Shown: in pieces, positions 5,461 to 57,099 of the stretch | Numbering within the stretch: position 1 is the first letter of the stretch | Layout: each line of letters begins with the position of its first letter | Source: Patescibacteria group bacterium | Lineage (GTDB): Bacteria > Patescibacteriota > Microgenomatia > UBA8517 | Length of the DNA: 64,000 nt | NCBI GenBank assembly: GCA_038061225.1 | Contig: JBBTZT010000002.1 | Coordinates: 12,655-76,654, forward strand | Direction of reading: 5' to 3' | Notes under the pieces: generated by a model | What the model saw: only the letters and a program-made list of their open reading frames with translations | What the model was told of the DNA's origin: nothing | Database searches by the model: none | Program-made: the position numbers and the translations under genes

Positions 5461-5853
5461 ATGAATATGAATAAATTTCATTTCAAATTAAAAAAGGTTC
5501 CTGTAATCAAAATTGACCCGCGTTTTGAAAAATTACCATTAAGACATCTTTTTATAATTTCTCTTGTTATTAATTGTGTTTTAATTCTGTCAGGACTTTT
5601 TGCAAAATTTGTCTTACCTCCAGAAATACCTTTATATTATGGGCTTCCTAAGAATGAAGACCAACTTGCCAATTCAATTTATATTATTTTACCGGCCTTA
5701 ATGTCAATTTTAGTTACAATTATTAATGCAGCGCTATCTGTTATTTCAAATAGTGTTTACCTTAAAAAAACTCTTGCTTTTGCTTCTATTTTAGTAACAA
5801 TTTTAAGTATTGTTGCAACTTACAAAATAATATTTTTAGTTGGTTCATTTTAA
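5461..5853 (+). CDS. Small integral membrane protein, hypothetical
   Basis: Three to four hydrophobic helices with no recognisable motif. Co-directional with the glycan cluster. Confidence 0.3.
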   Translation: MNMNKFHFKLKKVPVIKIDPRFEKLPLRHLFIISLVINCVLILSGLFAKFVLPPEIPLYYGLPKNEDQLANSIYIILPALMSILVTIINAALSVISNSVYLKKTLAFASILVTILSIVATYKIIFLVGSF

Positions 5854-6883
5854 TAAAATGTTAAAAATAACAAATCTTTTATTTATTCCTTTATTTATAG
5901 CATTTTTAGTTTCGTATTTTATTACTCCTGTTGTTATTAAATACGCAAAAATATTAAAAATCATGGACGATCCAAAGAAAAATAGACATCCAAAAGTAAT
6001 ACATACTACGCCAATTCCCAGAGGCGGCGGAATACCTGTTTTTCTCTCAATTTTAGTGGCTTCATTAATTTTTATACCTGTTGATAAACATTTAATATCA
6101 ATTTTACTGGGCGCATTTGTGATATTTATAATGGGATTTTTAGATGATAGATATAATCTAAACCCTTATTTAAGAATAGGTCTTGGATTTTTAGCAGCCA
6201 TTATTCCAATCGCTTCAGGTATTGGGATAGCTTTTTTAACCAATCCTTTTGGAGGTATCTTTGACCTTTCAAATCCAATTATTTCTGATATTTTTGCTCT
6301 AGTTTGGATTGTCTTTATGATGAATATGCTAAACATGGGGGCCAAAGGAATTGATGGTCAGCTTTCAGGTGTTACAATCATTTCAGCTCTAACAATCACT
6401 GCTCTTTCCTTTTACTATTCCTCAGATATCACACAATGGCCAGTGATATTAATAACAGGAATAACTGCTGGCGCATTTTTAGGTTTTCTTCCATGGCACA
6501 AGTATCCTCAAAAAATTATGCCAGGCTATGGAGGTGCAACATTAGCGGGTTATATGCTTGCAATTGCCTCAATACTTTCAACCACCAAAGTGGGAACGTT
6601 AATTGTAGTTTTAGGCATCCCTTTAATAGATACGGGGTATACTATCATTAGAAGAATTCTGTCAGGTAAATCCCCCGTCTGGGGTGACAGAGGGCATCTA
6701 CATCATAAATTACTAGACTCTGGTCTTTCAAAAAAACAAGTGTCCCAAATTTATTGGTCACTGACTGCAATACTTGGGATTTTAGCTCTTAATTTGAATA
6801 GTACATATAAGTTATATACAATCATAGGAGTATCGTTAGTTTTAGGAGGTTTAATACTATGGTTGACTTACCGATCCAGATAA
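5840..6883 (+). CDS. MraY/WecA-family polyprenyl-phosphate N-acetylhexosamine-1-phosphate transferase (GT4 family)
   Basis: Ten or so TM helices and a DDxxN-type motif (FLDDRYNLNPYLRIGLGF). The overall family pattern includes MNMLNMGAKGIDG. Confidence 0.7.
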   Translation: MVHFNKMLKITNLLFIPLFIAFLVSYFITPVVIKYAKILKIMDDPKKNRHPKVIHTTPIPRGGGIPVFLSILVASLIFIPVDKHLISILLGAFVIFIMGFLDDRYNLNPYLRIGLGFLAAIIPIASGIGIAFLTNPFGGIFDLSNPIISDIFALVWIVFMMNMLNMGAKGIDGQLSGVTIISALTITALSFYYSSDITQWPVILITGITAGAFLGFLPWHKYPQKIMPGYGGATLAGYMLAIASILSTTKVGTLIVVLGIPLIDTGYTIIRRILSGKSPVWGDRGHLHHKLLDSGLSKKQVSQIYWSLTAILGILALNLNSTYKLYTIIGVSLVLGGLILWLTYRSR

Positions 6884-7818: not shown

Positions 7819-8687
7819 ATTTTTGTTACATATTCACCACTTACCCACCCTTCTACCGGTGCAGCCGGCCAAGCTTCGCTTATCTCTCCTATTTTTATTT
7901 TAAACCAACTGCTATCTTCATTTTCTTCAATCACTTCATATTCTTCGCCTGGTTTAACTTCTGCTACTTCAGGAAAATTTACTCCCGCTCCCTGTCTAAC
8001 TCTTAAAAAACCTATGTCTGTTTTGTTTATAACGATAGTTGGAAGCATTTTCACTCTTGTTTTTATTTCAGTTGGTTTAAGTAATTCTTTTCCATCAGTT
8101 GCTGGTGTTTCGTTTGATTTTGCTAATTTTACTGAAGCTGTTAATTTATAACCTGCATAGACTTTAATAGGAAGAGATTTTTCTAAATATTTATCAGCAG
8201 AAACAATTAAATTATGATCTCCAGCAGGAACTTTTACACGGAGTGGTGTATATCCATATATTTTATTATCAATTAAAACTTGTGCATTATCAGGAACTGA
8301 CACAACAGTAATATATGATTCTTTACCACCCAGTTTTTCAAAAGATACAACTACTCCACTTGAGCTTTCTTCTGTTTCTCTAAAAACTCTTTTAACAATT
8401 GTCCTAATTCCTGAAACCAAATTTATTTTAGTTTCATAATCATCTAAAATAATATTATTAACACTATCTGGTTTTATTCTTAAAAGAATTTCTCCAGGAT
8501 TTCTATTTACTTCATATGGAGTTTTACCAACTTCTTGATTATTTATATAAACAGTTGAAATAGGGTCTGCTTCTACTAAAATTCCAGCTTCTTGGACATT
8601 AAAAAAATCGAGTAATAATAAAACCAATAAACCTAGGACAATGATTCCAGTCAAGACCAAAACAATTTTGACAATTTTCTTTTTCAT
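7788..8687 (-). CDS. PEGA-domain membrane-anchored protein
   Basis: N-terminal TM anchor. Two PEGA-like beta motifs (VYINNQEVGKTPYEV; VLIDNKIYGYTPLRVKV) and a C-terminal SH3-like segment. Confidence 0.5.
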   Translation of the reverse strand: MKKKIVKIVLVLTGIIVLGLLVLLLLDFFNVQEAGILVEADPISTVYINNQEVGKTPYEVNRNPGEILLRIKPDSVNNIILDDYETKINLVSGIRTIVKRVFRETEESSSGVVVSFEKLGGKESYITVVSVPDNAQVLIDNKIYGYTPLRVKVPAGDHNLIVSADKYLEKSLPIKVYAGYKLTASVKLAKSNETPATDGKELLKPTEIKTRVKMLPTIVINKTDIGFLRVRQGAGVNFPEVAEVKPGEEYEVIEENEDSSWFKIKIGEISEAWPAAPVEGWVSGEYVTKIYIPLTDTPE

Positions 8688-8754
8688 ATGTTCTTTAGTG
8701 TATCAGATTTTAAAAAAAATCCTTTGAGTATTCATATGTTACAATATGGCTATT

Positions 8755-8828
8755 GATCCGGTGCTAGAGTGGCCATAGGGCGGTCTGCAAAACCGTTTAC
8801 ATGGGTTCAAATCCCATCCGGATCTCCC
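8755..8828 (+). tRNA. tRNA-Cys (anticodon GCA)
   Basis: Cloverleaf read by hand. The acceptor is GATCCGG/CCGGATC. The anticodon stem is GCGGT/ACCGT with loop CTGCAAA. The T arm is ATGGG-TTCAAAT-CCCAT and the discriminator is U. Confidence 0.75.
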
Positions 8829-8864
8829 AGCTCCGATTTGAATTTATATTATCGTTTTTTATTA

Positions 8865-9452
8865 TCAACAAGATTGTTCCACTTTGCCCACAAAGGTAAC
8901 ATCTTTACCCCAATCATAATCTTCACTCCCAGGTAAACTCTCATCGAATTTATATTTTCCCCAAAATTCTTTTTTAATCAATGAGTTAGTATTTGATATC
9001 CAAGGAGTATAATCCTCTCGCTTTTTAAAAAATGGAAAATATAAAAAGACAATGTTTCCTAAAAACCTAGACCAATAACCCACTATAAAGTCTGAATAAT
9101 AGCCACTAAGTCCTGCAAGAGTTTTTTCTTTCATCAAGACATTAACTCCACTTGCAAGCCAATTGTTAGAAATCGGAATAGAATGGCCACTCAGAATACA
9201 AATGTATTTGCCCTTTGCTTTGTTTATACCGTAATTGAGTGAATATCCGTAAGTAAAATCTTTTTGACTAATTTTATATAAACGGATTGGAAACTTTTTA
9301 ACAATTTCGAGCGTCTGATCAGTTGATCCCGAATCAACAATTATAATTTCAAAATTTTTGAAAGTTTGTTTTAAAAGTAGATTTAAAACTTTACCTAAAT
9401 ATTTAGCCTCATTTTTAGTTCTTATAACAATACTTACAAGTGGATTTTCCAT
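8865..9452 (-). CDS. Family-2 glycosyltransferase (short)
   Basis: N-terminal GT-A signature VSIVIRTKNEAKYL...IIIVDSGSTDQT. Confidence 0.6.
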   Translation of the reverse strand: MENPLVSIVIRTKNEAKYLGKVLNLLLKQTFKNFEIIIVDSGSTDQTLEIVKKFPIRLYKISQKDFTYGYSLNYGINKAKGKYICILSGHSIPISNNWLASGVNVLMKEKTLAGLSGYYSDFIVGYWSRFLGNIVFLYFPFFKKREDYTPWISNTNSLIKKEFWGKYKFDESLPGSEDYDWGKDVTFVGKVEQSC

Positions 9453-9582
9453 AATTAAGAAACTATATAACTCATTACTTAATGATTATTTCCAGTAACT
9501 CAGGAAATTTGTCTGTTTTCATATCAGTTTCTATTTTATCATCTTTAAAGCAATTAATTCTAGAATGATTTAAAATATAGAC

Positions 9583-9810
9583 ATGATAAGAAGTGTTGCA
9601 TATTCTCAAAATCTACTAGTTGATGACAACTTGGTCGAAAAACTTGTTTCGTCATCTCATATTAACAATGGTGATACAGTTTTAGAAATTGGTGCTGGAA
9701 AAGGAATAATAACTAAAGAGCTTTTAAAAAAGGCAGGTAATGTTGTGGTTTTTGAAATTGATCAAGAACTTGTAAATTCGTGGCAGTTACGATTGTATCC
9801 CATAATTTGA
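9583..9810 (+). pseudogene. Truncated N-terminal fragment (75 aa) of a KsgA/RsmA/Erm-type rRNA adenine dimethyltransferase
   Basis: QNLLVDDNLVEKL...VLEIGAGKGIITKELLKKAGNVVVFEIDQELV matches the SAM-binding N-terminus of the family. The ORF stops after about 75 of the expected 260 aa. Confidence 0.5.
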
Positions 9811-9813
9811 CTT

Positions 9814-10551
9814 TTGATACTTTTATATGATAGAATCAACCATCTCGCAAGTAATTGCGGGATTTTTGTTATCGCGGAGCGTCAAGCTTTGCTTATGAAA
9901 CATCTAACTATACATCTGCCAAAGTATCGCCTTGTTATGCAATTCAAACTTGCAAAAAGGCGAAAATCACTTTTGGACGAACCTATTATCCCTACCAAAA
10001 AGAGATTGAATCTCAAGTATCGCGTAGGGGGTTTAACTCGTAAATTTTTTAGATATGTTTTTGAACACAAAGCTGCAAAAAAACTATTAGGTACAAACAT
10101 TGCATTAATGTTAATTGCTTCATCCTTTGTTCCCAATAACACACTTGGTAGTACTGGTGTTGCTGAAATAATTAGTGTTGATGGTGCAGAAACTCCAATT
10201 CATACCAACATAGTTATTCAAAATCCAGTAGATAAGATGATAATTACCCAAGGGTATAAACTTTTCCATCCTGGATTAGACATAGATGGTATAACTGGAG
10301 ATACTATTAAATCTATTAAAAAGGGTAGAGTTGAAACAGTTGAATTTTCAAATATTGGCTATGGAAAAAGCATAATCATTAACCATGGTAATAACTTAAA
10401 ATCTCTCTATGCCCATTTATCAAAAATATATGTAAAAGAGGGCGATGAGATTGATACAAATATAGTTTTAGGTGAAATGGGTTCTACAGGTCGTTCTTTT
10501 GGAGATCATTTGCATTTAGAGATTAGGGATCATGGAATTCCTATAAATCCT

Positions 10552-10569
<18 letters not shown>
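9814..10569 (+). CDS. M23-family (LytM-type) metallopeptidase with N-terminal basic region and a TM anchor. The true start is probably the internal Met near 9898 or 9940.
   Basis: C-terminal GYGKSIIINHGNNLKSLYAHL...GSTGRSFGDHLHLEI (HxxxD...HxH M23 signature). TM segment LLGTNIALMLIASSF. Confidence 0.75.
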
Positions 10570-12752
<2,183 letters not shown>

Positions 12753-49489: not shown

Positions 49490-50261
49490 AGGAGTAGATC
49501 CTAATTCTATTAACAAAAAGTCTATTGCAGTTGTTGGTAGTCGTCAAATGACAAGGTATGGTAGAGATGTGGTTGATAAATTCGTGTGCGATTTTGTTGC
49601 TAATGGAGTAACAACAATCTCTGGTTTTATGTATGGCGTGGATACTGAAGTTGCAAAGAAAACACTTGAATATGGAGGAAAACACATTGCAATTTTTGGC
49701 TGTGGTCTGGACCATATTTATCCACCTGAAAACAAAAAGTTATATGAAGAGATTTTAAAAAGTGGAGGATCAATTGTTTCTGAGTATGAAGATTCGGCAA
49801 AACCAAGTATCTGGAAATTCCCACAAAGAAACAAAATTGTAGCTAGCCTCGCCTCACTTGGGGTTCTTGTTATTGAGGCGGGTAGCGGGAGTGGATCACT
49901 TGTAACTGCCAAAATTGCAAAAAAAATGGGCAAGAAAGTTTGGGCAGTACCTGGGCCTATAAATTCAAGAGTTTCTGTTGGATGTAATGAATTAATAAAA
50001 TCAGGCGACGCCCAAATGGCCATTTGTGTGAGAGATATTATTAAGATTAAAACTACAGAAATTCAGAACTCAAGAATTCCAGATAATCTAAATACAGAAG
50101 AACAAAAAATATTTAAAATACTTCAACTAGAGCCTATGGAAATTGATGAGATTGCACAGAAATTAGAAGAAAATGTTGTAGAAGTTGGATCTACACTATC
50201 AATAATGGGGATTAAAGGGTTAGTTACGGAGAGTGGCGGAAAATATTTTTTAGTACGGTAG
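49470..50261 (+). CDS. dprA: DNA processing protein DprA/Smf (Rossmann core + C-terminal wH, no SAM domain)
   Basis: IAVVGSRQMTRYGRDVV...TISGFMYGVDTEVAKKTLEYGGKHIAIFGCGLDHIYPPEN. Located downstream of comM and yraN. Confidence 0.8.
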   Translation: MKILHFRGVDPNSINKKSIAVVGSRQMTRYGRDVVDKFVCDFVANGVTTISGFMYGVDTEVAKKTLEYGGKHIAIFGCGLDHIYPPENKKLYEEILKSGGSIVSEYEDSAKPSIWKFPQRNKIVASLASLGVLVIEAGSGSGSLVTAKIAKKMGKKVWAVPGPINSRVSVGCNELIKSGDAQMAICVRDIIKIKTTEIQNSRIPDNLNTEEQKIFKILQLEPMEIDEIAQKLEENVVEVGSTLSIMGIKGLVTESGGKYFLVR

Positions 50262-52706
50262 TGTTGGTGAGCTTGGACAAAAAATTGGAGCCTTTGAAGC
50301 ATACGCAGCTCTCCAGTCAGTGTTATTAAGATTAGTAATAAGTTGTGAGGTATTGAATCCTGATCCGAAAAGTGGTGGTGGATATACACCACCAGGGTCC
50401 AATACTGTAATTGGCCACAGTACATAACCAGGTAAATATCCATACTCTTGAAGTGTCGCCTCATCTGTTTTGCCGGCAGCACAATCGTTTCTGAGTGTGT
50501 TAACCATGCAGTCAATTTTCTCATCGATTGATTGAACTTGTGAAACATTGCATCCAAAATGTGAACTTGATGATCCATCTGCCATATCTGTCATCAAACC
50601 ACCATTTTCATTAAGTCCGATTCCAATAGCCCAAAAAGGGTTAAGAGATTTGCCGTTACATTTCGTAGACGCTGCTTTTGCGATTACTTTGTTGTAAACA
50701 TTTTCATCAAGAAGCCATTGTTTACATGCTCCAGTCTCAGGTTCTTCTGTTGGTTTACAATTTCCATCAGCAATTGGTTCGCCGTAACCTTTAGGGCGAA
50801 GGGCAGTTTGAATTCCTTTTAAAAAGTATTCATAGACTGAACCTATGTGTGGGAAAGTTAATTCTGGTTTATCACCACCCCCATCTTCTGGAATTTTTTT
50901 AACACCAAATTCTAAAGACCCACCTCTTGGGGTTTCACTTTCCTCAGCATTATAAGTAACCCCAGTAACTGTTGGAATATCTGCAATACAACTAACTGGC
51001 GCACCTTCCTCGACTTTTGGAAATATTTTTCTAAAAGTACTTCCAGAGTCAGCTACAGTAGTTGAAAATATTTCATCTGCATTTGGAACTTTAACATCTG
51101 TTGGAACAACTATTGTAACTTCTGCGTTACAATGATGGGAATATGTAGTTTCCCAGGAACCTCCTTTTTTAGGGGGAAGGTTAGGAACCCAGATGGTTGT
51201 TTTAGTAACTTTACACAAAACTTGATCAATATTGTAGGTCACTTTTGGAATGACCATTTCTTTAGTGTCTCCAGGTGATCTATCTCCTGGGAATAAATTA
51301 TCACCTTTGTTTGTCCTGACATTTACTGCGCTACAGTCGAGACCGTTTACTTTTGGAAGAGTTTCTGTTGTTTCTGGAACCTTTTCACTTTTATATCCTT
51401 GTGGCAGATAGGTTTTATTTAATAATTCTGACGATTCTTTAACTTCCTCCGTATGTGCAAAATAAAGAGGAGCGTTTTTCTGATTTGCCTCGTCATATTT
51501 TTCACCTGAAATTACTGTTGTTCCGATTGAAGGTTTAAACTGAACATCTAGAATTCTCTCCGCACCTTTTTTGTCAGTAGTATTTGAAAGGGGAATATAT
51601 TGATATAAATCCGCCCATTTATTTGGTACGAATGGATTATCTATACACAAAAGAAGGTCAACAAAAGGAATTTTCGCGCAAGAATCACCTCGCCATTCGT
51701 TATATGCTTTTTGATATGCCTGTTGGCTTTCAAATGGGTCTCCATTTTTATCTGCCCAAGGAAGTGGCGGAGTCCTTTTGTTCCATATATCAGTTCCAAT
51801 TCTGTTAAACAATCCATTAAAATCTGACAAATCTCCTCCGTACCACCCCTGATCGCCCACTATACCTATACTTTTATCTATTAATCTAAATTTTTCATCT
51901 CCTCCATAGCAAGGGACAGGCGTAATTTTTCCGATATTAAGAAGGCCTCCAAACCAACCAAAGTTGCTATCTCCACAAACCACAATTTGATTATGATTTT
52001 GAGGTTCGGTAGTGTCACCAACTTCCTCATCGACATAGTTTGTGATTGCCGAAGCAGAGGCAATGGTGGAAATTCTTTGAGCATCTTGAATCACAGATGG
52101 TAAAAGTTTTTGGATTGGGCCTGAGAAATTAACAACTCGACTATCTGTATTTTCTTCATATTCAGCACGATTGTTTACTCCACTTAAATACCAACTTGCA
52201 TATTCATTTACTTTCTGTGCATCAGAAAATTCATCATTTTTTTTATCATAATTTTTTACTTGTTCAGTGTTCCCTAAAATTGGAAACATGGAATCTGTAA
52301 GCTCAACATAAAGATTATGAGGATCAATATAACCATCTTTGGGTTTACACCAGAAATCACTTGTATTTTTTCCCAAATCACATTGACTAGTTAAGTCAAA
52401 AGATTCAATAAATTTTAATTCATTGCTACAAAACAAAGCTTTATTGGCATCTCCACAGGCAGCGGCTTGATAAGGACGAAGGGAGTGAAATTCAGGATCC
52501 TTTACATCGTTACAAGGAAAACCCACTCTTGGAAAAGCCTCAACCTCGGCTTTTGCCGACGGAATTAAGAGTGAATAATTAATTATTAATAATAAAAACA
52601 AAGAGAAAGAAAACAGAATGAATTTAGACAATATTTTCATTTGACATTTAATATTATGGTTTAAAGATTGTAAAGTTTGTAACATCAGCACCTGTAAAGG
52701 TTCCAA
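50250..52706 (-). CDS. Large Cys-rich secreted protein (about 800 aa), terminal gene of the pilin-array operon. The probable start is MKILSKFILF at about 52640.
   Basis: Signal/TM anchor FILFSFSLFLLLIINYSLLIPSAKA. More than 30 Cys, no TM after the anchor, and no catalytic motif recognised. Confidence 0.45.
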   Translation of the reverse strand: MEPLQVLMLQTLQSLNHNIKCQMKILSKFILFSFSLFLLLIINYSLLIPSAKAEVEAFPRVGFPCNDVKDPEFHSLRPYQAAACGDANKALFCSNELKFIESFDLTSQCDLGKNTSDFWCKPKDGYIDPHNLYVELTDSMFPILGNTEQVKNYDKKNDEFSDAQKVNEYASWYLSGVNNRAEYEENTDSRVVNFSGPIQKLLPSVIQDAQRISTIASASAITNYVDEEVGDTTEPQNHNQIVVCGDSNFGWFGGLLNIGKITPVPCYGGDEKFRLIDKSIGIVGDQGWYGGDLSDFNGLFNRIGTDIWNKRTPPLPWADKNGDPFESQQAYQKAYNEWRGDSCAKIPFVDLLLCIDNPFVPNKWADLYQYIPLSNTTDKKGAERILDVQFKPSIGTTVISGEKYDEANQKNAPLYFAHTEEVKESSELLNKTYLPQGYKSEKVPETTETLPKVNGLDCSAVNVRTNKGDNLFPGDRSPGDTKEMVIPKVTYNIDQVLCKVTKTTIWVPNLPPKKGGSWETTYSHHCNAEVTIVVPTDVKVPNADEIFSTTVADSGSTFRKIFPKVEEGAPVSCIADIPTVTGVTYNAEESETPRGGSLEFGVKKIPEDGGGDKPELTFPHIGSVYEYFLKGIQTALRPKGYGEPIADGNCKPTEEPETGACKQWLLDENVYNKVIAKAASTKCNGKSLNPFWAIGIGLNENGGLMTDMADGSSSSHFGCNVSQVQSIDEKIDCMVNTLRNDCAAGKTDEATLQEYGYLPGYVLWPITVLDPGGVYPPPLFGSGFNTSQLITNLNNTDWRAAYASKAPIFCPSSPTLPY

Positions 52707-52938
52707 TAATAAGTAGAATCAAATATGAGAAGGCTAATAGAACAAAACCACCAATTGCATAGGTTAAGGTGTTTTTTGCCCCTTCTACTGCTTTTGGATC
52801 ACCTCCAGATGTTAAATATTTAAAACCAGAAGATAAAAGCGTTAAAAAAAGACCAATACCACCAAGAGCTAGAAGTGCTTTAACTACATTTTCAAAAACG
52901 TCTTCAAGTTGTGATAATTCTGCAGGTGCTGCTGCCAT
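52654..52938 (-). CDS. Pilin-like small two-TM protein, paralog 8 (T4SS/VirB2-like pilin candidate)
   Basis: TM1, then TSGGDPKAVEGAKNTLTYAIGGFVLLAFSYLILLIIG, then TM2. Confidence 0.5.
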   Translation of the reverse strand: MAAAPAELSQLEDVFENVVKALLALGGIGLFLTLLSSGFKYLTSGGDPKAVEGAKNTLTYAIGGFVLLAFSYLILLIIGTFTGADVTNFTIFKP

Positions 52939-52987
52939 ATAAAAATAAGTTTAGCTTATTCAAGAAAATTGAGCAAGAGAAGATTGG

Positions 52988-53326
52988 TTAACCAGCTTTT
53001 GGAAGATCTAACTTTAATATATTAACCCCAAAGAATGTATTTATTAGTTGAATTATTGCCCAAGCTGAAAAGACTATAACCAAACCAACAAGAGCTGCAG
53101 TAATTTGATTTCTTGCACCTTCTGTATGAGCTTTATCTCCACCCGAGAGTATCCATTTAATGCCTCCAATGACTAGAATAAAAAAGAATGCCAAACCTGC
53201 AATCACTAAAACTAATCTAATAAAACCAGACACCATACCTTCGATCGTAAGATCGGTAGCGCCTTGAAAAGCACTGCCTAAATTTTTATCTAACTCAATT
53301 GCCGCTAAATAAAAAACATCGTTCAT
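52988..53326 (-). CDS. Pilin-like small two-TM protein, paralog 7
   Basis: LSGGDKAHTEGARNQITAALVGLVIVFSAWAIIQLINTFFGVNIL. Confidence 0.5.
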   Translation of the reverse strand: MNDVFYLAAIELDKNLGSAFQGATDLTIEGMVSGFIRLVLVIAGLAFFFILVIGGIKWILSGGDKAHTEGARNQITAALVGLVIVFSAWAIIQLINTFFGVNILKLDLPKAG

Positions 53327-53334
53327 ATTAGGTA

Positions 53335-53712
53335 TTATTGAATAACCAATGGGCCTATGTCAATAGACAAAATATCTATCCCAAAGAAAGTTTCAATCAG
53401 CTTAACAATTGCAAAAGTTCCAATAAGTAATACAAAACCTACAATTGCATTTGTAATTCTACCCTTTGCTGACTCAAGACCTGCTTTATCTCCACCAGAC
53501 AATATCCAACTGATTGCCCCCCAAAGAAGCATGAAGAAAAAAGCCAAAGCACCAATTACAAATAAAAGACCAATTACCCTGCTGATTAAATCGCCAAAAA
53601 AGAATTCTGGTAAATTTAGGAGCATCTGATTAAGCGTGTTTCCGATGGCAGGGTTTGAAATTTTTCCATCTCCTGTAGTTCCTGCTCCAGCTAATAGTGT
53701 ATTTATTTGCAT
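53335..53712 (-). CDS. Pilin-like small two-TM protein, paralog 6
   Basis: LSGGDKAGLESAKGRITNAIVGFVLLIGTFAIVKLIETFFGIDIL. Confidence 0.5.
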   Translation of the reverse strand: MQINTLLAGAGTTGDGKISNPAIGNTLNQMLLNLPEFFFGDLISRVIGLLFVIGALAFFFMLLWGAISWILSGGDKAGLESAKGRITNAIVGFVLLIGTFAIVKLIETFFGIDILSIDIGPLVIQ

Positions 53713-53713
53713 A

Positions 53714-54205
53714 TTAATTTAGTGATTTAAAAAGCGTTGCAATGTCTAGGATATTTGGCAAACCTAATAATTTCCCGATAAAGCTTAAAATAAAGAGAGA
53801 TGAAACAAGCACTACTAGTCCAATTACTCCATTTGTAATCTTTTTTCTTGCCCCCTCTAGAGCTTGTTTGTCTCCACTTGAAGAAATGATACTAACAGCG
53901 CCTGTCACAATTATAAATACCATCCAAATAATTCCAATTATTGTAATAAGACCAACCGCTGAGGAAAGAAATGTTGCAAAAACTGATATACCACTTTGAC
54001 CCTGTTCTAATCCAAGTGGTCCAAAGCCCTTATACCCCTCTCCTTCAAATAATTTAATTTGTGCGATTTTGTTCATGGTGTAGGTATTGATGGTTGTAAT
54101 AAAAATAATGGATTTTTGAATATCAATTGCCCTATTATAGCTGCAAGTACAAAAGATCCTGCAGAAAAAGCAAGCCCCATTAAAGTTTGATAAATTTTTG
54201 CCCAT
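53714..54205 (-). CDS. Pilin-like small two-TM protein, paralog 5. The likely start is MNKIAQIK at about 54076.
   Basis: SSSGDKQALEGARKKITNGVIGLVVLVSSLFILSFIGKLLGL. Confidence 0.45.
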   Translation of the reverse strand: MGKNLSNFNGACFFCRIFCTCSYNRAIDIQKSIIFITTINTYTMNKIAQIKLFEGEGYKGFGPLGLEQGQSGISVFATFLSSAVGLITIIGIIWMVFIIVTGAVSIISSSGDKQALEGARKKITNGVIGLVVLVSSLFILSFIGKLLGLPNILDIATLFKSLN

Positions 54206-54489
54206 GCACTTGCAACCTTTTTACTATCATCTCCTGCAGACATAAAAGCATAACCAGCAAGAACAAGATTAAACAAAGCATAAATACCTGCACCAACTAC
54301 TAATGCTCGTAGTCCAAACTGAATTAATTTTCCAAAAGCAGGACCGGCTTCAGCTCCATAAATACTATTTAGTTTATCAGGAACTTCTACAGTTCCAAAT
54401 GGATTTTGCGCAAGTAAATTCATATATAAATCTATTATACTAATAATTGTCACCAACACAAGCACTTGACAGACCTCATATAATCCCAT
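54073..54489 (-). CDS. Pilin-like small two-TM protein, paralog 4. The likely start is MNLLAQNPFG at about 54423.
   Basis: MSAGDDSKKVASAWAKIYQTLMGLAFSAGSFVLAAIIGQLIF. Confidence 0.45.
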   Translation of the reverse strand: MGLYEVCQVLVLVTIISIIDLYMNLLAQNPFGTVEVPDKLNSIYGAEAGPAFGKLIQFGLRALVVGAGIYALFNLVLAGYAFMSAGDDSKKVASAWAKIYQTLMGLAFSAGSFVLAAIIGQLIFKNPLFLLQPSIPTP

Positions 54490-55562
54490 ATAATCTCATA
54501 TATATGAATGACAAGTTCAACATAAGGTTTAATAATGTATCACACGAGATATGGCTAAAAATTACACAAATAGAAAGTTTAAAAGGTAAATGGGATGGAA
54601 GTACCAAACTTAGCCCACAAATTCTTGGAAGATTAAAAAAATCCGTATTGGTTACCTCAACAGGTGCTTCTACTCGTATTGAAGGTTCAAAACTAACAGA
54701 TGAAACAGTTGAAAAAATGATGAAAGGGATTTCAATCCAAAAATTTAGTAATCGAGATGAACAAGAAGTAATGGGATATTATGAACTTCTTCAAAATATT
54801 TTTAATTCTTGGGAGTCAATAACATTTAGCGAAAGTGCAATATTACATTTTCATAAAGAATTGTTGAAATATGTTGGAAAAGACGAAACCCATAGAGGTG
54901 AGTATAAGAAAAAAGAAAATGCAGTACATATGGTTAATGAAAAAGGGAAATCAGTGGGAATTCTTTTTGAAACTACCAAGGCATATTTAACTCCAAAGGA
55001 AATGTATGAGCTCATTGATTGGACAAAAACAGCATTAAATCAAAATACCTATCATCCACTTTTAATTATTTCAAATTTTATAGTTGAATTTTTAAATATT
55101 CACCCTTTTTCTGACGGAAACGGCAGATTATCAAGAATTTTAACTAATTTATTGCTATTAAAAGCGGGTTATTTATATATACCATATGTATCACACGAAA
55201 AATTAATTGAAGATAATAAACCAGAATATTATTTAGCCTTACGCCGTAGCCAAAATACATTAAGAACCAAAAAACCAGATGTTTCGTTTTGGACCAATTT
55301 CTTTTTAGATATATTATTTACTCAATCTGAAATTGCCATAAAACAGTTAACAGAAACAAATATTGAATCAGTGTTATCACCAAAACAATTATTGGTTTGG
55401 GATTATTTAGAAAAAAATGATGAAGTGACTCCCATGGAAATTTCTAAAAAAGCTGGAGTTACTAGACCTACAGTTACTCAAGTTCTTGTTAAATTATTAG
55501 ATCTAAAAATGATTGAGAAAATTGGCCAAGGATCAGCAACAAGATATCGAAAACTAAAGTGA
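54447..55562 (+). CDS. fic: Fic-family protein (AMPylase-type) with C-terminal winged helix. The likely start is MNDKFNIRF at about 54504.
   Basis: Canonical Fic motif HPFSDGNGRLSRIL. A C-terminal wH runs QLLVWDYLEKNDEVTPMEISKKAGVTRPTVTQVLVKL. Confidence 0.8.
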   Translation: MSPTQALDRPHIIPYNLIYMNDKFNIRFNNVSHEIWLKITQIESLKGKWDGSTKLSPQILGRLKKSVLVTSTGASTRIEGSKLTDETVEKMMKGISIQKFSNRDEQEVMGYYELLQNIFNSWESITFSESAILHFHKELLKYVGKDETHRGEYKKKENAVHMVNEKGKSVGILFETTKAYLTPKEMYELIDWTKTALNQNTYHPLLIISNFIVEFLNIHPFSDGNGRLSRILTNLLLLKAGYLYIPYVSHEKLIEDNKPEYYLALRRSQNTLRTKKPDVSFWTNFFLDILFTQSEIAIKQLTETNIESVLSPKQLLVWDYLEKNDEVTPMEISKKAGVTRPTVTQVLVKLLDLKMIEKIGQGSATRYRKLK

Positions 55563-55874
55563 AATAAGTGATAAGCCTGTGATTGTTTCTATGAGTTTTA
55601 CTATCCAATATGCAGAAAATACAACTATGAAGCCAATTAGCGCTGAAGTTGCAGCCTTTTTACCCTTTTCAACTGTTTGGGGATCTGATTTTCCAGCACC
55701 CGCAATCATTCCAATTCCACCCCCAATTAAAAGAAAAAGTAAAAATATTCCTGCTATTGAAATAGCACCTGTAATAATTGCAGAAACATACCTACTTATA
55801 CTATCAACTCTGTATAAATCTCCACGTGTATCACCTAAGAAAGTTGTACCAATGTTAATTGCTAATTTATTCAT
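55554..55874 (-). CDS. Pilin-like small two-TM protein, paralog 3
   Basis: GAGKSDPQTVEKGKKAATSALIGFIVVFSAYWIVKLIETITGLSL. Confidence 0.5.
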   Translation of the reverse strand: MNKLAINIGTTFLGDTRGDLYRVDSISRYVSAIITGAISIAGIFLLFLLIGGGIGMIAGAGKSDPQTVEKGKKAATSALIGFIVVFSAYWIVKLIETITGLSLISL

Positions 55875-55876
55875 AT

Positions 55877-56191
55877 TTAATTAAATAAAATTGTCTCTAT
55901 ACCCAAAAATTTCATTATAAGCATAACTATCCAAAATGATACAAATAAAATTGATATTCCAATTACAGATGTTGTAAGTTTAGCTTGTGCTGCCTGCATT
56001 ACTTTTGGATCTCCTGTAGACGTCATCATTTTAAAACCTGATGTAATAATATTTAAAAGCAGAATTATTCCTGCAATTCCAAAGATATATGGAAGAGCTA
56101 AATTGATAAAACCCGATGGTTCAAGTAAAACGTTCCAAGCAGGCAACCCTGCGTTATTTTGTATTGAAGTAAAAGTTGCCGTGTCAAACAT
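55877..56191 (-). CDS. Pilin-like small two-TM protein, paralog 2
   Basis: TSTGDPKVMQAAQAKLTTSVIGISILFVSFWIVMLIMKFLGIETIL. Confidence 0.5.
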   Translation of the reverse strand: MFDTATFTSIQNNAGLPAWNVLLEPSGFINLALPYIFGIAGIILLLNIITSGFKMMTSTGDPKVMQAAQAKLTTSVIGISILFVSFWIVMLIMKFLGIETILFN

Positions 56192-56193
56192 AT

Positions 56194-56574
56194 TTATAAT
56201 TTATCCAATCCCAGTATATCAATTCCTATGAATTTTAGTATAAAGACACTAAAAATTAACATAATTAAACCTGAAATGGCTGATGTTAGTAGTTCTTGCC
56301 CTGCTTTTAATCTGTCTGGAACTCCTTGAGAAGTCATTATCATAAAACTAGCATAGACAATCAATAAAAATGCAATTCCACCACCAACCCCAACAGCCCA
56401 ACCCAATATCCACCCCATGAATTGATTTGTATCAGAAACTGGTATACAGCCAATAGCTGTATCAATTCCACAATCTTCAAGCTGAGCAAATACTGGTTTG
56501 ATTGAATAACTAATTAAAGTTAAAAATAAAAATATTGCAGGGATTATTTTTTTCATAGCGTAGCTGGATTTCAT
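56194..56574 (-). CDS. Pilin-like small protein, paralog 1, with a clear signal peptide
   Basis: Signal peptide MKKIIPAIFLFLTLISYSIKPVFAQ, then two TMs flanking TSQGVPDRLKAGQELLTSAISGL. C-terminal KFIGIDILGL. Confidence 0.5.
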   Translation of the reverse strand: MKSSYAMKKIIPAIFLFLTLISYSIKPVFAQLEDCGIDTAIGCIPVSDTNQFMGWILGWAVGVGGGIAFLLIVYASFMIMTSQGVPDRLKAGQELLTSAISGLIMLIFSVFILKFIGIDILGLDKL

Positions 56575-56597: not shown

Positions 56598-56879
56598 TTG
56601 TTAAACTTATACATCATGCAAACAAAATTATTAAATTATAGAGTTATTGTTGAGCCAGAAACCTATCCAAATGGTGATAAAGTTTATAATGCCTATTGTC
56701 CAACACTTGGGATAACAGATTACGGAGACACAATAGAAGAAGCGTTGGAAAGTTTAAAAGATGGTATTGGACTAGCTGTTGAAATGTTATCTAAAGAGAA
56801 AGCAGAAATTCCATCAGACGATTTAAATACCCAGATTGTTACTCAAACACAAATTCAATATCCGATAGCTTTTGCCTAA
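56598..56879 (+). CDS. hicB: HicB-family antitoxin
   Basis: YRVIVEPETYPNGDKVYNAYCPTLGITDYGDTIEEALESLKDGI matches the HicB/UPF0150 N-terminal fold. Confidence 0.65.
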   Translation: MLNLYIMQTKLLNYRVIVEPETYPNGDKVYNAYCPTLGITDYGDTIEEALESLKDGIGLAVEMLSKEKAEIPSDDLNTQIVTQTQIQYPIAFA

Positions 56880-57099
56880 GAAAATGCCCAAACTGCCAAG
56901 AAATATAAAACCGAAAATATTACTTAAAATTCTTAAATCAAAAGGTTTTGTCGAAGTTGGGGGAAAAGGGTCTCATGTTCGATTAAAGCATCAAGATGGT
57001 AGATGGACACAAGTTGCCATTCATCCCAAGCCAATTCCACAAGGAACTTTGAGAAAAATCTTGAGTCAAGTTAAACTTCAGATAGAGGATGTAAAATGA
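56872..57099 (+). CDS. hicA: HicA-family mRNA interferase toxin
   Basis: LLKILKSKGFVEVGGKGSHVRLKHQDGRWTQVAIHP matches the HicA signature. It overlaps hicB by 8 bp. Confidence 0.7.
   Translation: MPKKMPKLPRNIKPKILLKILKSKGFVEVGGKGSHVRLKHQDGRWTQVAIHPKPIPQGTLRKILSQVKLQIEDVK

Follow-up and report, generated by a model that had tools for sequence, protein, structure and literature searches.

A Class II Fic Cassette as a Probable Passenger in a Conserved Eight-Pilin Operon of a Patescibacteria Group Bacterium

Introduction

How did a gene for a Fic protein come to lie antisense within a tight array of pilin genes, and does it have anything to do with the pilins? The locus that raises this question is found in the window, a stretch of 64,000 nucleotides (nt) from a Patescibacteria group bacterium (assembly GCA_038061225.1, contig JBBTZT010000002.1, positions 12,655 to 76,654). 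Eight paralogous genes for pilins of the type IV secretion system (T4SS) type occupy 52654-56574 on the minus strand of the window, and fic (54504-55562, plus strand) stands between the third and the fourth of them. A first interpretation made without database searches, here called the sequence-only reading, had noticed this arrangement and had offered three explanations, namely, that a Fic module was inserted, that filament genes and a protein-modifying enzyme are coupled in their regulation, and that a toxin-like effector is secreted through a T4SS-like apparatus. Our analysis leads us to consider it probable that a self-contained toxin- or defence-type Fic cassette was inserted into a conserved eight-pilin operon, where it is a passenger and not a partner of the pilins.

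Results

Relatives that lack fic indicate what the array looks like when it is uninterrupted. Orthologous loci were fetched through the 818-amino-acid (aa) protein encoded after pilin 8 (50250-52706, minus strand; no Pfam match), with one genome taken per species, and were scanned with a hidden Markov model built from the eight window pilins. Exactly eight pilins in the same order on one strand, with no fic among them, are present in 11 Woesebacteria/Microgenomates genomes (L010, L011, L013 to L016, L018 to L020, L022, and L023), in 10 of which the array lies directly upstream of the anchor gene, whose product of about 820 aa has no Pfam match. These arrays look like orthologous sets and not like recently duplicated genes, which suggests that a filament or complex is built from several fixed subunits. 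At the five junctions that were read (L010, L011, L013, L014, and L018), the pilin-3 stop codon and the pilin-4 ATG are 0 to 3 nt apart, as in L014 (...TCAATTTAAAATGAACAATCTATTAGCACAAAATCCATTTGGT), and because fic-less junctions are this tight, the limits of the additional DNA in the window can be placed at 54424-55553, a segment of 1130 bp that lies between the pilin-3 stop codon and the pilin-4 start codon. Apart from the window lineage, the segment occurs only in L005 to L008 and L024, contigs of a lineage from Hainich well H43 whose Fic protein is 89% identical to that of the window and whose fic gene reads 18 bp into pilin 3, with another ending (…YKTKFLTNKF). Comparison of these sequences strongly supports a lineage-specific insertion exactly at the pilin 3/4 stop/start junction, and the module insertion that the sequence-only reading had listed among its explanations is borne out by the 11 uninterrupted arrays.

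The two ends of the segment merge closely with the neighbouring genes. At its 3' end, fic converges with pilin 3 (55554-55874, minus strand; 106 aa, intact; PF18895, E=2.9e-10) in an overlap of 9 bp (55554-55562), the length previously estimated: the fic stop codon ends at 55562, the pilin-3 stop codon occupies 55554-55556, and fic has no stop codon of its own, its last two codons and stop (CTA AAG TGA) being the antisense of the pilin-3 end (TCA CTT TAG). The C terminus of pilin 3, SLISL, is the same in the window and in the fic-less L011. A terminator scan between the convergent fic and pilin-3 genes returned no terminator-like site, so mutual antisense read-through is likely. At the 5' end, the spacer to pilin 4 (54073-54423, minus strand; 116 aa, intact) measures 80 bp (54424-54503) when the pilin-4 start is taken at 54423, in keeping with the earlier figure of less than 100 bp. 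The automatic gene call makes pilin 4 a protein of 138 aa starting at 54489, with 22 extra codons that cross the inserted fic promoter; because of the homology with fic-less arrays, we regard 54423 (MNLLAQNPFG) as the true start. The mechanical fic open reading frame (ORF) likewise reaches back to an in-frame TTG at 54447, upstream of the fic promoter. An assembly chimera was considered and rejected, since the identical fic/pilin layout is found on contigs of four independent sequencing runs, whose assemblies agree on the antisense position between pilins 3 and 4.

The remaining members of the array, all on the minus strand, are pilin 1 (56194-56574), pilin 2 (55877-56191), pilin 5 (53714-54076), pilin 6 (53335-53712), pilin 7 (52988-53326), and pilin 8 (52654-52938). 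The window pilins are small proteins with two transmembrane segments, and all eight align as paralogues; five of the eight score above the gathering threshold of PF18895 (T4SS_pilin), two miss it narrowly, and pilin 4 is without a Pfam match.

From its ATG, fic encodes 352 aa that combine a Fic domain with a C-terminal winged helix, both of which the sequence-only reading had recognized. The domain is matched by Pfam PF02661 over aa 108-218 (E=2.7e-15; 57.4 bits with a cut-off of 24), and the catalytic motif H200-P-F-S-D-G-N-G-R-L-S-R211 (55101-55136, plus strand) is intact, fits HxFx(D/E)GNGRxxR, and is invariant across 26 close homologues with 66-89% identity. The winged helix-turn-helix (wHTH) covers aa 291-350 (55374-55553, plus strand), where Pfam matches at aa 291-349 (MarR_2, E=5.4e-07, and TrmB) coincide with three helices and a beta-hairpin (H293-304, H310-317, H321-333, E337-340, and E347-350) in the AlphaFold2 model. 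That model was computed from an alignment of 59 diverse sequences and has a mean predicted local distance difference test (pLDDT) score of 92.6 and a predicted template modelling score of 0.84; an earlier run from a shallow alignment of 26 sequences (66-89% identity) gave a pLDDT of 66.7, with less than 50 in the inhibitory-helix region, and was not relied on.

Structural and profile searches agree with this assignment, and model and structural matches fit the all-helical Fic fold with its beta-hairpin flap. Foldseek aligned the model to the Protein Data Bank (PDB) entries 8uqu and 3cuc and to FICD at E<=1e-8. The template modelling (TM) score was 0.88 for 8uqu (Fic domain; root mean square deviation 2.1 A), 0.65-0.70 for 4rgl across the full length, and about 0.6 for Coxiella Fic2 (8cil), SoFic (3zcn and 3eqx), and CccR (7xux). 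Sequence matches to 8uqu were found both in a single-sequence search (E=2.2e-32, aa 27-348) and in a profile search (E=2.3e-40), which covered aa 23-348 including the winged helix. The PADLOC model for SoFic, PDLC03963, matches aa 46-344 of the window protein (E=3.2e-40; 136.6 bits; 361-position profile), and the NCBIfam SoFic equivalog NF046030 reached only 46.8 bits of a required 550 and aligned to aa 170-281 only. The ratio of nonsynonymous to synonymous substitution rates (dN/dS) between the window and L005 copies is 0.088, and fic is therefore a working gene under purifying selection.

The sequence-only reading had noted no inhibitory helix and had left auto-inhibition undecided, a point that has to be revised, because a check of the N terminus revealed S56-T-R-I-E60-G61 (54669-54686, plus strand), a perfect (S/T)xxxE(G/N) motif located on the N-terminal side of the Fic motif in this same protein. 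It is invariant among the same 26 homologues, aligns to S-N-R-L-E-G of 8uqu, and is nearly identical to S59-A-R-I-E-G of CccR, whose Ser and Glu hold the motif arginine (PMC9755527). As the motif is internal and the structural matches are to class II Fic proteins, the window Fic is, as far as motif and model indicate, a self-inhibited class II protein with a C-terminal winged helix, similar to SoFic and CccR. No small ORF tied to fic was found that would make up a class I module, with 80 bp upstream of the gene and its 3' end overlapping pilin 3, and a class I toxin-antitoxin arrangement was rejected for want of room for a second gene on either side. In the wider family represented by the 59-member alignment, the catalytic His is replaced by R, Q, S, or E in 15 of 59 members and the inhibitory Glu is replaced by Asp in 10 distant ones. 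Distant members without the catalytic His may form a subgroup of pure DNA-binding proteins; the window Fic and all of its close relatives keep this residue.

The segment also carries what appears to be a complete promoter. A TTGACA box (54466-54471) and a TATAAT box (54489-54494), spaced by 17 nt, form a predicted fic promoter (54466-54494, plus strand) that matches the sigma-70 consensus in 12 of 12 positions, and the ATG follows the -10 box by 9 nt, which implies a leaderless or near-leaderless fic mRNA. Three 10-bp tandem repeats, CATATAATCC, CATATAATCT, and CATATATATG (54477-54506, plus strand), overlap the -10 box and the start codon. The same layout of -35 box, repeats, and ATG is present upstream of Fic homologues, where similarity starts at the -35 box and is absent farther upstream. 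A 21-nt family consensus, AATCTTATATAATCTTATATA, is found with up to 4 mismatches in 80 of 81 homologue upstream regions, compared with 3 matches in a background of 1.29 Mb formed by the remaining sequence of the homologue loci; at up to 5 mismatches, one background match (L103) appears to precede a second fic-like gene. More distant homologue subgroups have two direct copies followed by an inverted third copy. On this evidence, promoter and repeats travel with fic.

The repeats are candidate operators for the winged helix of Fic itself. We infer such autorepression because CccR and SoFic provide precedents: CccR represses its own promoter by way of AGATAATCAT repeats of 10 bp that lie near its -35 and -10 boxes (PMC9755527), and SoFic, which AMPylates EF-Tu, also binds its own promoter, the dimer binding specifically to the stretch of 100 bp upstream of its start codon (bioRxiv 10.64898/2026.07.09.737422).

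In the other direction, the spacer contains a putative promoter for pilins 4-8 (54434-54461, minus strand) with TTGTGT (54461-54456), 16 nt, and TATAAT (54439-54434), the latter separated by 10 nt from the ATG at 54423. L005 has the same two hexamers with a different sequence between them; the -35 box is weak (3 of 6 positions), and the site is absent from the output of the consensus scan. This may be a new promoter that restored transcription of pilins 4-8 and of the 818-aa protein gene after the operon was split.

Fic homologues number in the thousands, and at the level of 50% clusters, 340 reach E<=1e-30. With 66-100% identity, the 120 best homologues belong to Shapirobacteria, Levybacteria, Magasanikbacteria, other Microgenomates, and one Methylomirabilota bin. 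Among the 81 homologue loci that were surveyed (Fic proteins 63-89% identical to that of the window), fic lies inside a pilin array in one only, the H43 lineage (L005), a further locus (L090) has one pilin-like ORF 5.5 kb from its fic homologue, and the other 79 have no pilin match within the sequence available. The contexts sampled include housekeeping genes (fic standing between an aldose epimerase and tRNA-His, or beside DnaB), a second Fic gene, integrases, and a HepT/MNT toxin-antitoxin pair. In about 11 of 80 loci (L009, L031, L032, L047, L048, L050, L052, L062, L086, L090, and L096), the fic homologue has a tRNA gene no more than 500 bp away; this is about three times a rough expectation and reminiscent of island integration sites, and we do not build on it.

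These contexts bear on the second explanation, that the Fic-wHTH protein represses or times pilins 4-8 and the 818-aa protein from a shared 80-bp region, possibly in connection with stress or AMPylation. The two predicted promoters indeed point away from each other with 4 nt between their -35 boxes, the window and L005 spacers agree in 75 of 80 nt even though fic shows a proportion of synonymous differences of 0.42, the arrangement is kept under purifying selection, and CccR alters the expression of many genes. However, the repeats are found towards fic, 12 nt or more past the putative -35 box of pilin 4, and a search of the 64-kb window returned no further copies beyond the fic promoter; moreover, the 11 related arrays work without fic, and homologues with the same operator are found in unrelated contexts. 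Coupling, for which the sequence-only reading had left room, fares poorly with 79 of 81 loci free of pilin matches, and we consider it unlikely.

Pilin arrays instead appear to be landing sites for accessory genes. In L014, an AAA_14/DUF4143 ATPase gene (8579-9706) lies between pilins 7 and 8, and in L019, a 23S_rRNA_IVP protein gene (5944-6309) lies between pilins 1 and 2, while an antisense AbiEii toxin gene with an 88-aa partner ORF (8547-9435) lies between pilins 7 and 8. L005 has AAA_14/DUF4143 genes at both ends of its array, and a 65-aa ORF is further cargo at stop/start junctions among the L014, L019, and L005 arrays; the cargo segments of L005 are 1366-2505, 5621-5818, and 9469-10626. 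The window array has an additional example in a hicB/hicA pair (56598-57099, plus strand; HicA PF07927, E=2.8e-15), located between the pilin-1 start (56574) and SpoIID (57096) and absent from this position in L005, L011, and L014; by this comparison, it appears to be a second lineage-specific insertion of toxin-antitoxin type. The varied cargo at other array junctions, together with hicB/hicA in the window, favours a hotspot for toxin-antitoxin and defence-type cargo over coupling of fic to the pilins.

Discussion

Our results lead us to propose that the inserted cassette consists of a consensus sigma-70 promoter, 10-bp repeats over the -10 box, a leaderless start, and a class II Fic-wHTH protein. 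By analogy with characterized relatives, the protein would be an AMP-transferase that is kept off by Glu60 of its own inhibitory helix and is dimeric via an N-terminal helix, and its winged helix would bind the repeats, repress its own promoter, and keep its level low. Upon activation, for example, by phage or stress, it might AMPylate a conserved target such as EF-Tu and thereby arrest growth, and a growth-arresting AMPylation would make fic a toxin- or defence-type passenger rather than a partner of the pilins. In the split operon, transcription of pilins 4-8 would have to start from a new promoter within the 80-bp spacer or to come from read-through that is antisense to fic.

Several observations weigh against an inserted passenger of this kind, and they concern how the cassette arrived, what it does, how old it is, and what it neighbours elsewhere. 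The surroundings of the insertion were searched for target-site duplications and terminal inverted repeats, with only short repeats at chance level as the outcome, and no transposase, integrase, or recombinase that would account for the insertion was found. The Fic clade is unusually conserved (67-76% identity across several lineages of the candidate phyla radiation [CPR]), which is atypical for fast-evolving defence genes, and the window Fic is only 14-19% identical to SoFic and CccR in structural alignments, so that its target and role are extrapolated. Furthermore, over most of the array the window resembles the fic-less L011 more closely than the fic-bearing L005, and some homologues in other lineages lie close to T4SS-like genes; the last two points each give weight to another explanation and are taken up in turn.

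The relatedness of the array is mosaic. Identity to the window is higher in L011 than in L005 for pilin 3 (92% versus 68%), for pilin 5 (83% versus 49%), and for a 462-aa protein (89% versus 59%), and for pilin 4 the values are 81% and 78%; overall, pilins 2, 3, 5, and 6 are much nearer to L011, and pilin 7 (86% versus 72%) and the 5' end of pilin 4 are nearer to L005. Between the window and L005, nucleotide identity is about 88% across fic and the spacer and 48-78% in pilin 3. Such a mosaic suggests that co-occurring groundwater lineages have recombined. A single, simple ancestral gain of fic was set aside as a poor fit, since the fic-less L011 is nearer over most of the array. Two histories are possible, either an ancestral gain followed by clean losses or a later exchange of the fic allele through recombination in the flanking pilins.

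Another view holds that fic is a long-standing translational or stress regulator of this lineage, passed on vertically, that stands in the array by chance and was lost from its fic-less relatives. Its very strong conservation (with the dN/dS reported above) would suit a housekeeping resident, as would the insertion, junctions, and spacer that the window shares with L005 although the two lineages are not each other's closest relatives, and SoFic offers a parallel, its reversible AMPylation and deAMPylation of EF-Tu being regulatory, not lethal (bioRxiv 10.64898/2026.07.09.737422). This account, however, needs several clean deletions, each of which would have restored a stop/ATG junction of 0 to 3 nt; when the window is compared with L005, fic has a lower synonymous substitution rate (dS; 0.62) than the flanking genes (0.85-2.0), suggesting later exchange; and the gene sits in many different places elsewhere, including the tRNA-adjacent loci (about 11 of 80). 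An ancestral resident at this position is improbable in our judgment, and an inserted passenger is still the preferred reading. Neither of the findings that would have spoken against the sequence-only reading was made: the Fic motif shows no degeneration, and at this position fic is no conserved resident.

The neighbourhood of T4SS-like genes raises the third explanation, in which Fic would be a toxin delivered to host or neighbour cells by a T4SS-like apparatus, comparable to the Bartonella Beps and VbhT or to the secreted CccR, which has the same architecture. In L029/L030/L104 (T4SS-like region at 6001-13056 in L104 and likewise in L029/L030) and in L028 (578-3362), Fic homologues with 73-75% identity have PrgI-like, TraC-like, and VirB4-like genes at a distance of 1-3 kb. 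The window itself has a T4SS-like core cluster (32895-39623, minus strand) with a VirB4/TraG P-loop ATPase gene (35573-37405), a neighbour encoding 891 aa without a Pfam match, and genes for two further proteins (228 aa and 344 aa) with homology to the TraC-like and PrgI-like genes in L104; this cluster is about 13 kb from the pilin array, so that pilins and ATPase are not contiguous. Nevertheless, Pfam found only Fic and winged-helix domains in the 352 aa of the window protein, with no BID or other recognizable secretion domain and a C terminus that is a winged helix, and in the great majority of homologue loci the available sequence contains neither a T4SS-like nor a pilin gene. A T4SS-like or pilin neighbour is present in about 3 to 4 lineages among about 45 loci with usable flanks, against about 2 in a rough chance estimate, a difference that is not significant. 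In addition, the T4SS-adjacent loci (L104/L029/L030 and L028) have a VirB4/TraG P-loop ATPase gene interrupted by an intein and carry, in between, a HepT/MNT pair and two 23S_rRNA_IVP genes, toxin-antitoxin and IVP cargo that fits a hotspot. The secreted effector mentioned by the sequence-only reading is, in view of these data, very improbable.

A further idea would be that the conserved CPR Fic-wHTH clade is functionally tied to the T4SS-like/pilin machinery, either as a regulator that gates pilins 4-8 from the shared divergent control region or as its cargo or guardian, in which case its presence inside T4SS-like loci or within 1-3 kb of them in 3 to 4 lineages (window/L005, L029/L030/L104, L028, and perhaps L090) would be more than a hotspot effect; we regard this as doubtful. 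A cassette that landed in the pilin operon as a passenger accounts for the locus better in our opinion.

As a single gene, fic is ordinary, since class II Fic-wHTH proteins are among the commonest Fic proteins and are already catalogued as SoFic-type defence genes. What makes the locus informative is that it provides a natural before/after case in which a cassette of promoter and ORF entered a tight CPR operon, with both cassette ends trimmed to overlap and the operon apparently rescued by a new promoter. The family-wide combination of promoter, 10-bp repeats, and leaderless start suggests that a large CPR-centred clade, for which the repeat signature supplies a precise candidate operator, shares the autorepression described for CccR and proposed for SoFic. 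Pilin arrays as landing sites for cargo are useful to know for annotation and warn against deriving function from adjacency.

How does the window Fic compare with known systems? The class I pairs FicT/FicA and VbhT/VbhA and the Bartonella Beps share with it the Fic core and a toxin-like logic, VbhT and the Beps also having a T4SS link, but the window protein differs in its internal inhibitory helix and has neither a separate antitoxin gene nor a BID domain. The closest solved relative by sequence is 8UQU, a Fic family protein of Bordetella bronchiseptica, which is nonetheless only about 26% identical in structural alignment; a literature search for a paper on this PDB entry found none.

The likeness to SoFic (Shewanella oneidensis SO_4266 and EcSofic of E. 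coli) is one of general design: both are stand-alone class II Fic-wHTH genes whose products of about 350-370 aa are composed of an N-terminal helix, inhibitory motif, Fic core, and C-terminal winged helix. SoFic has been reported to be a single-gene anti-phage system (bioRxiv 10.1101/2022.05.11.491447), and EcSofic is toxic and has been described as an abortive-infection defence (PMC12249575). The window Fic is not an orthologue, with about 16% identity in structural alignment, and it leaves no room for a downstream small antitoxin gene of the AS1 type, as its 3' end overlaps pilin 3. Its host is an uncultured, Woesebacteria-like CPR bacterium of groundwater. Phage protection and EF-Tu AMPylation are known only for the E. 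coli and Shewanella proteins.

CccR of Yersinia pseudotuberculosis (PDB 7XUX) is an effector of the type VI secretion system that targets FtsZ, and it shows 18-19% identity to the window Fic in structural alignment. Its repeats are inverted and 26 bp apart, whereas those of the window are direct with a 10-bp period. Both systems nevertheless combine a C-terminal winged helix with repeats at the -35/-10 region of the gene's own promoter, which for the window is evidence read from the DNA, and the CccR half-site AGATAATCAT and the window unit ATATAATCYY match in 8 of 10 positions.

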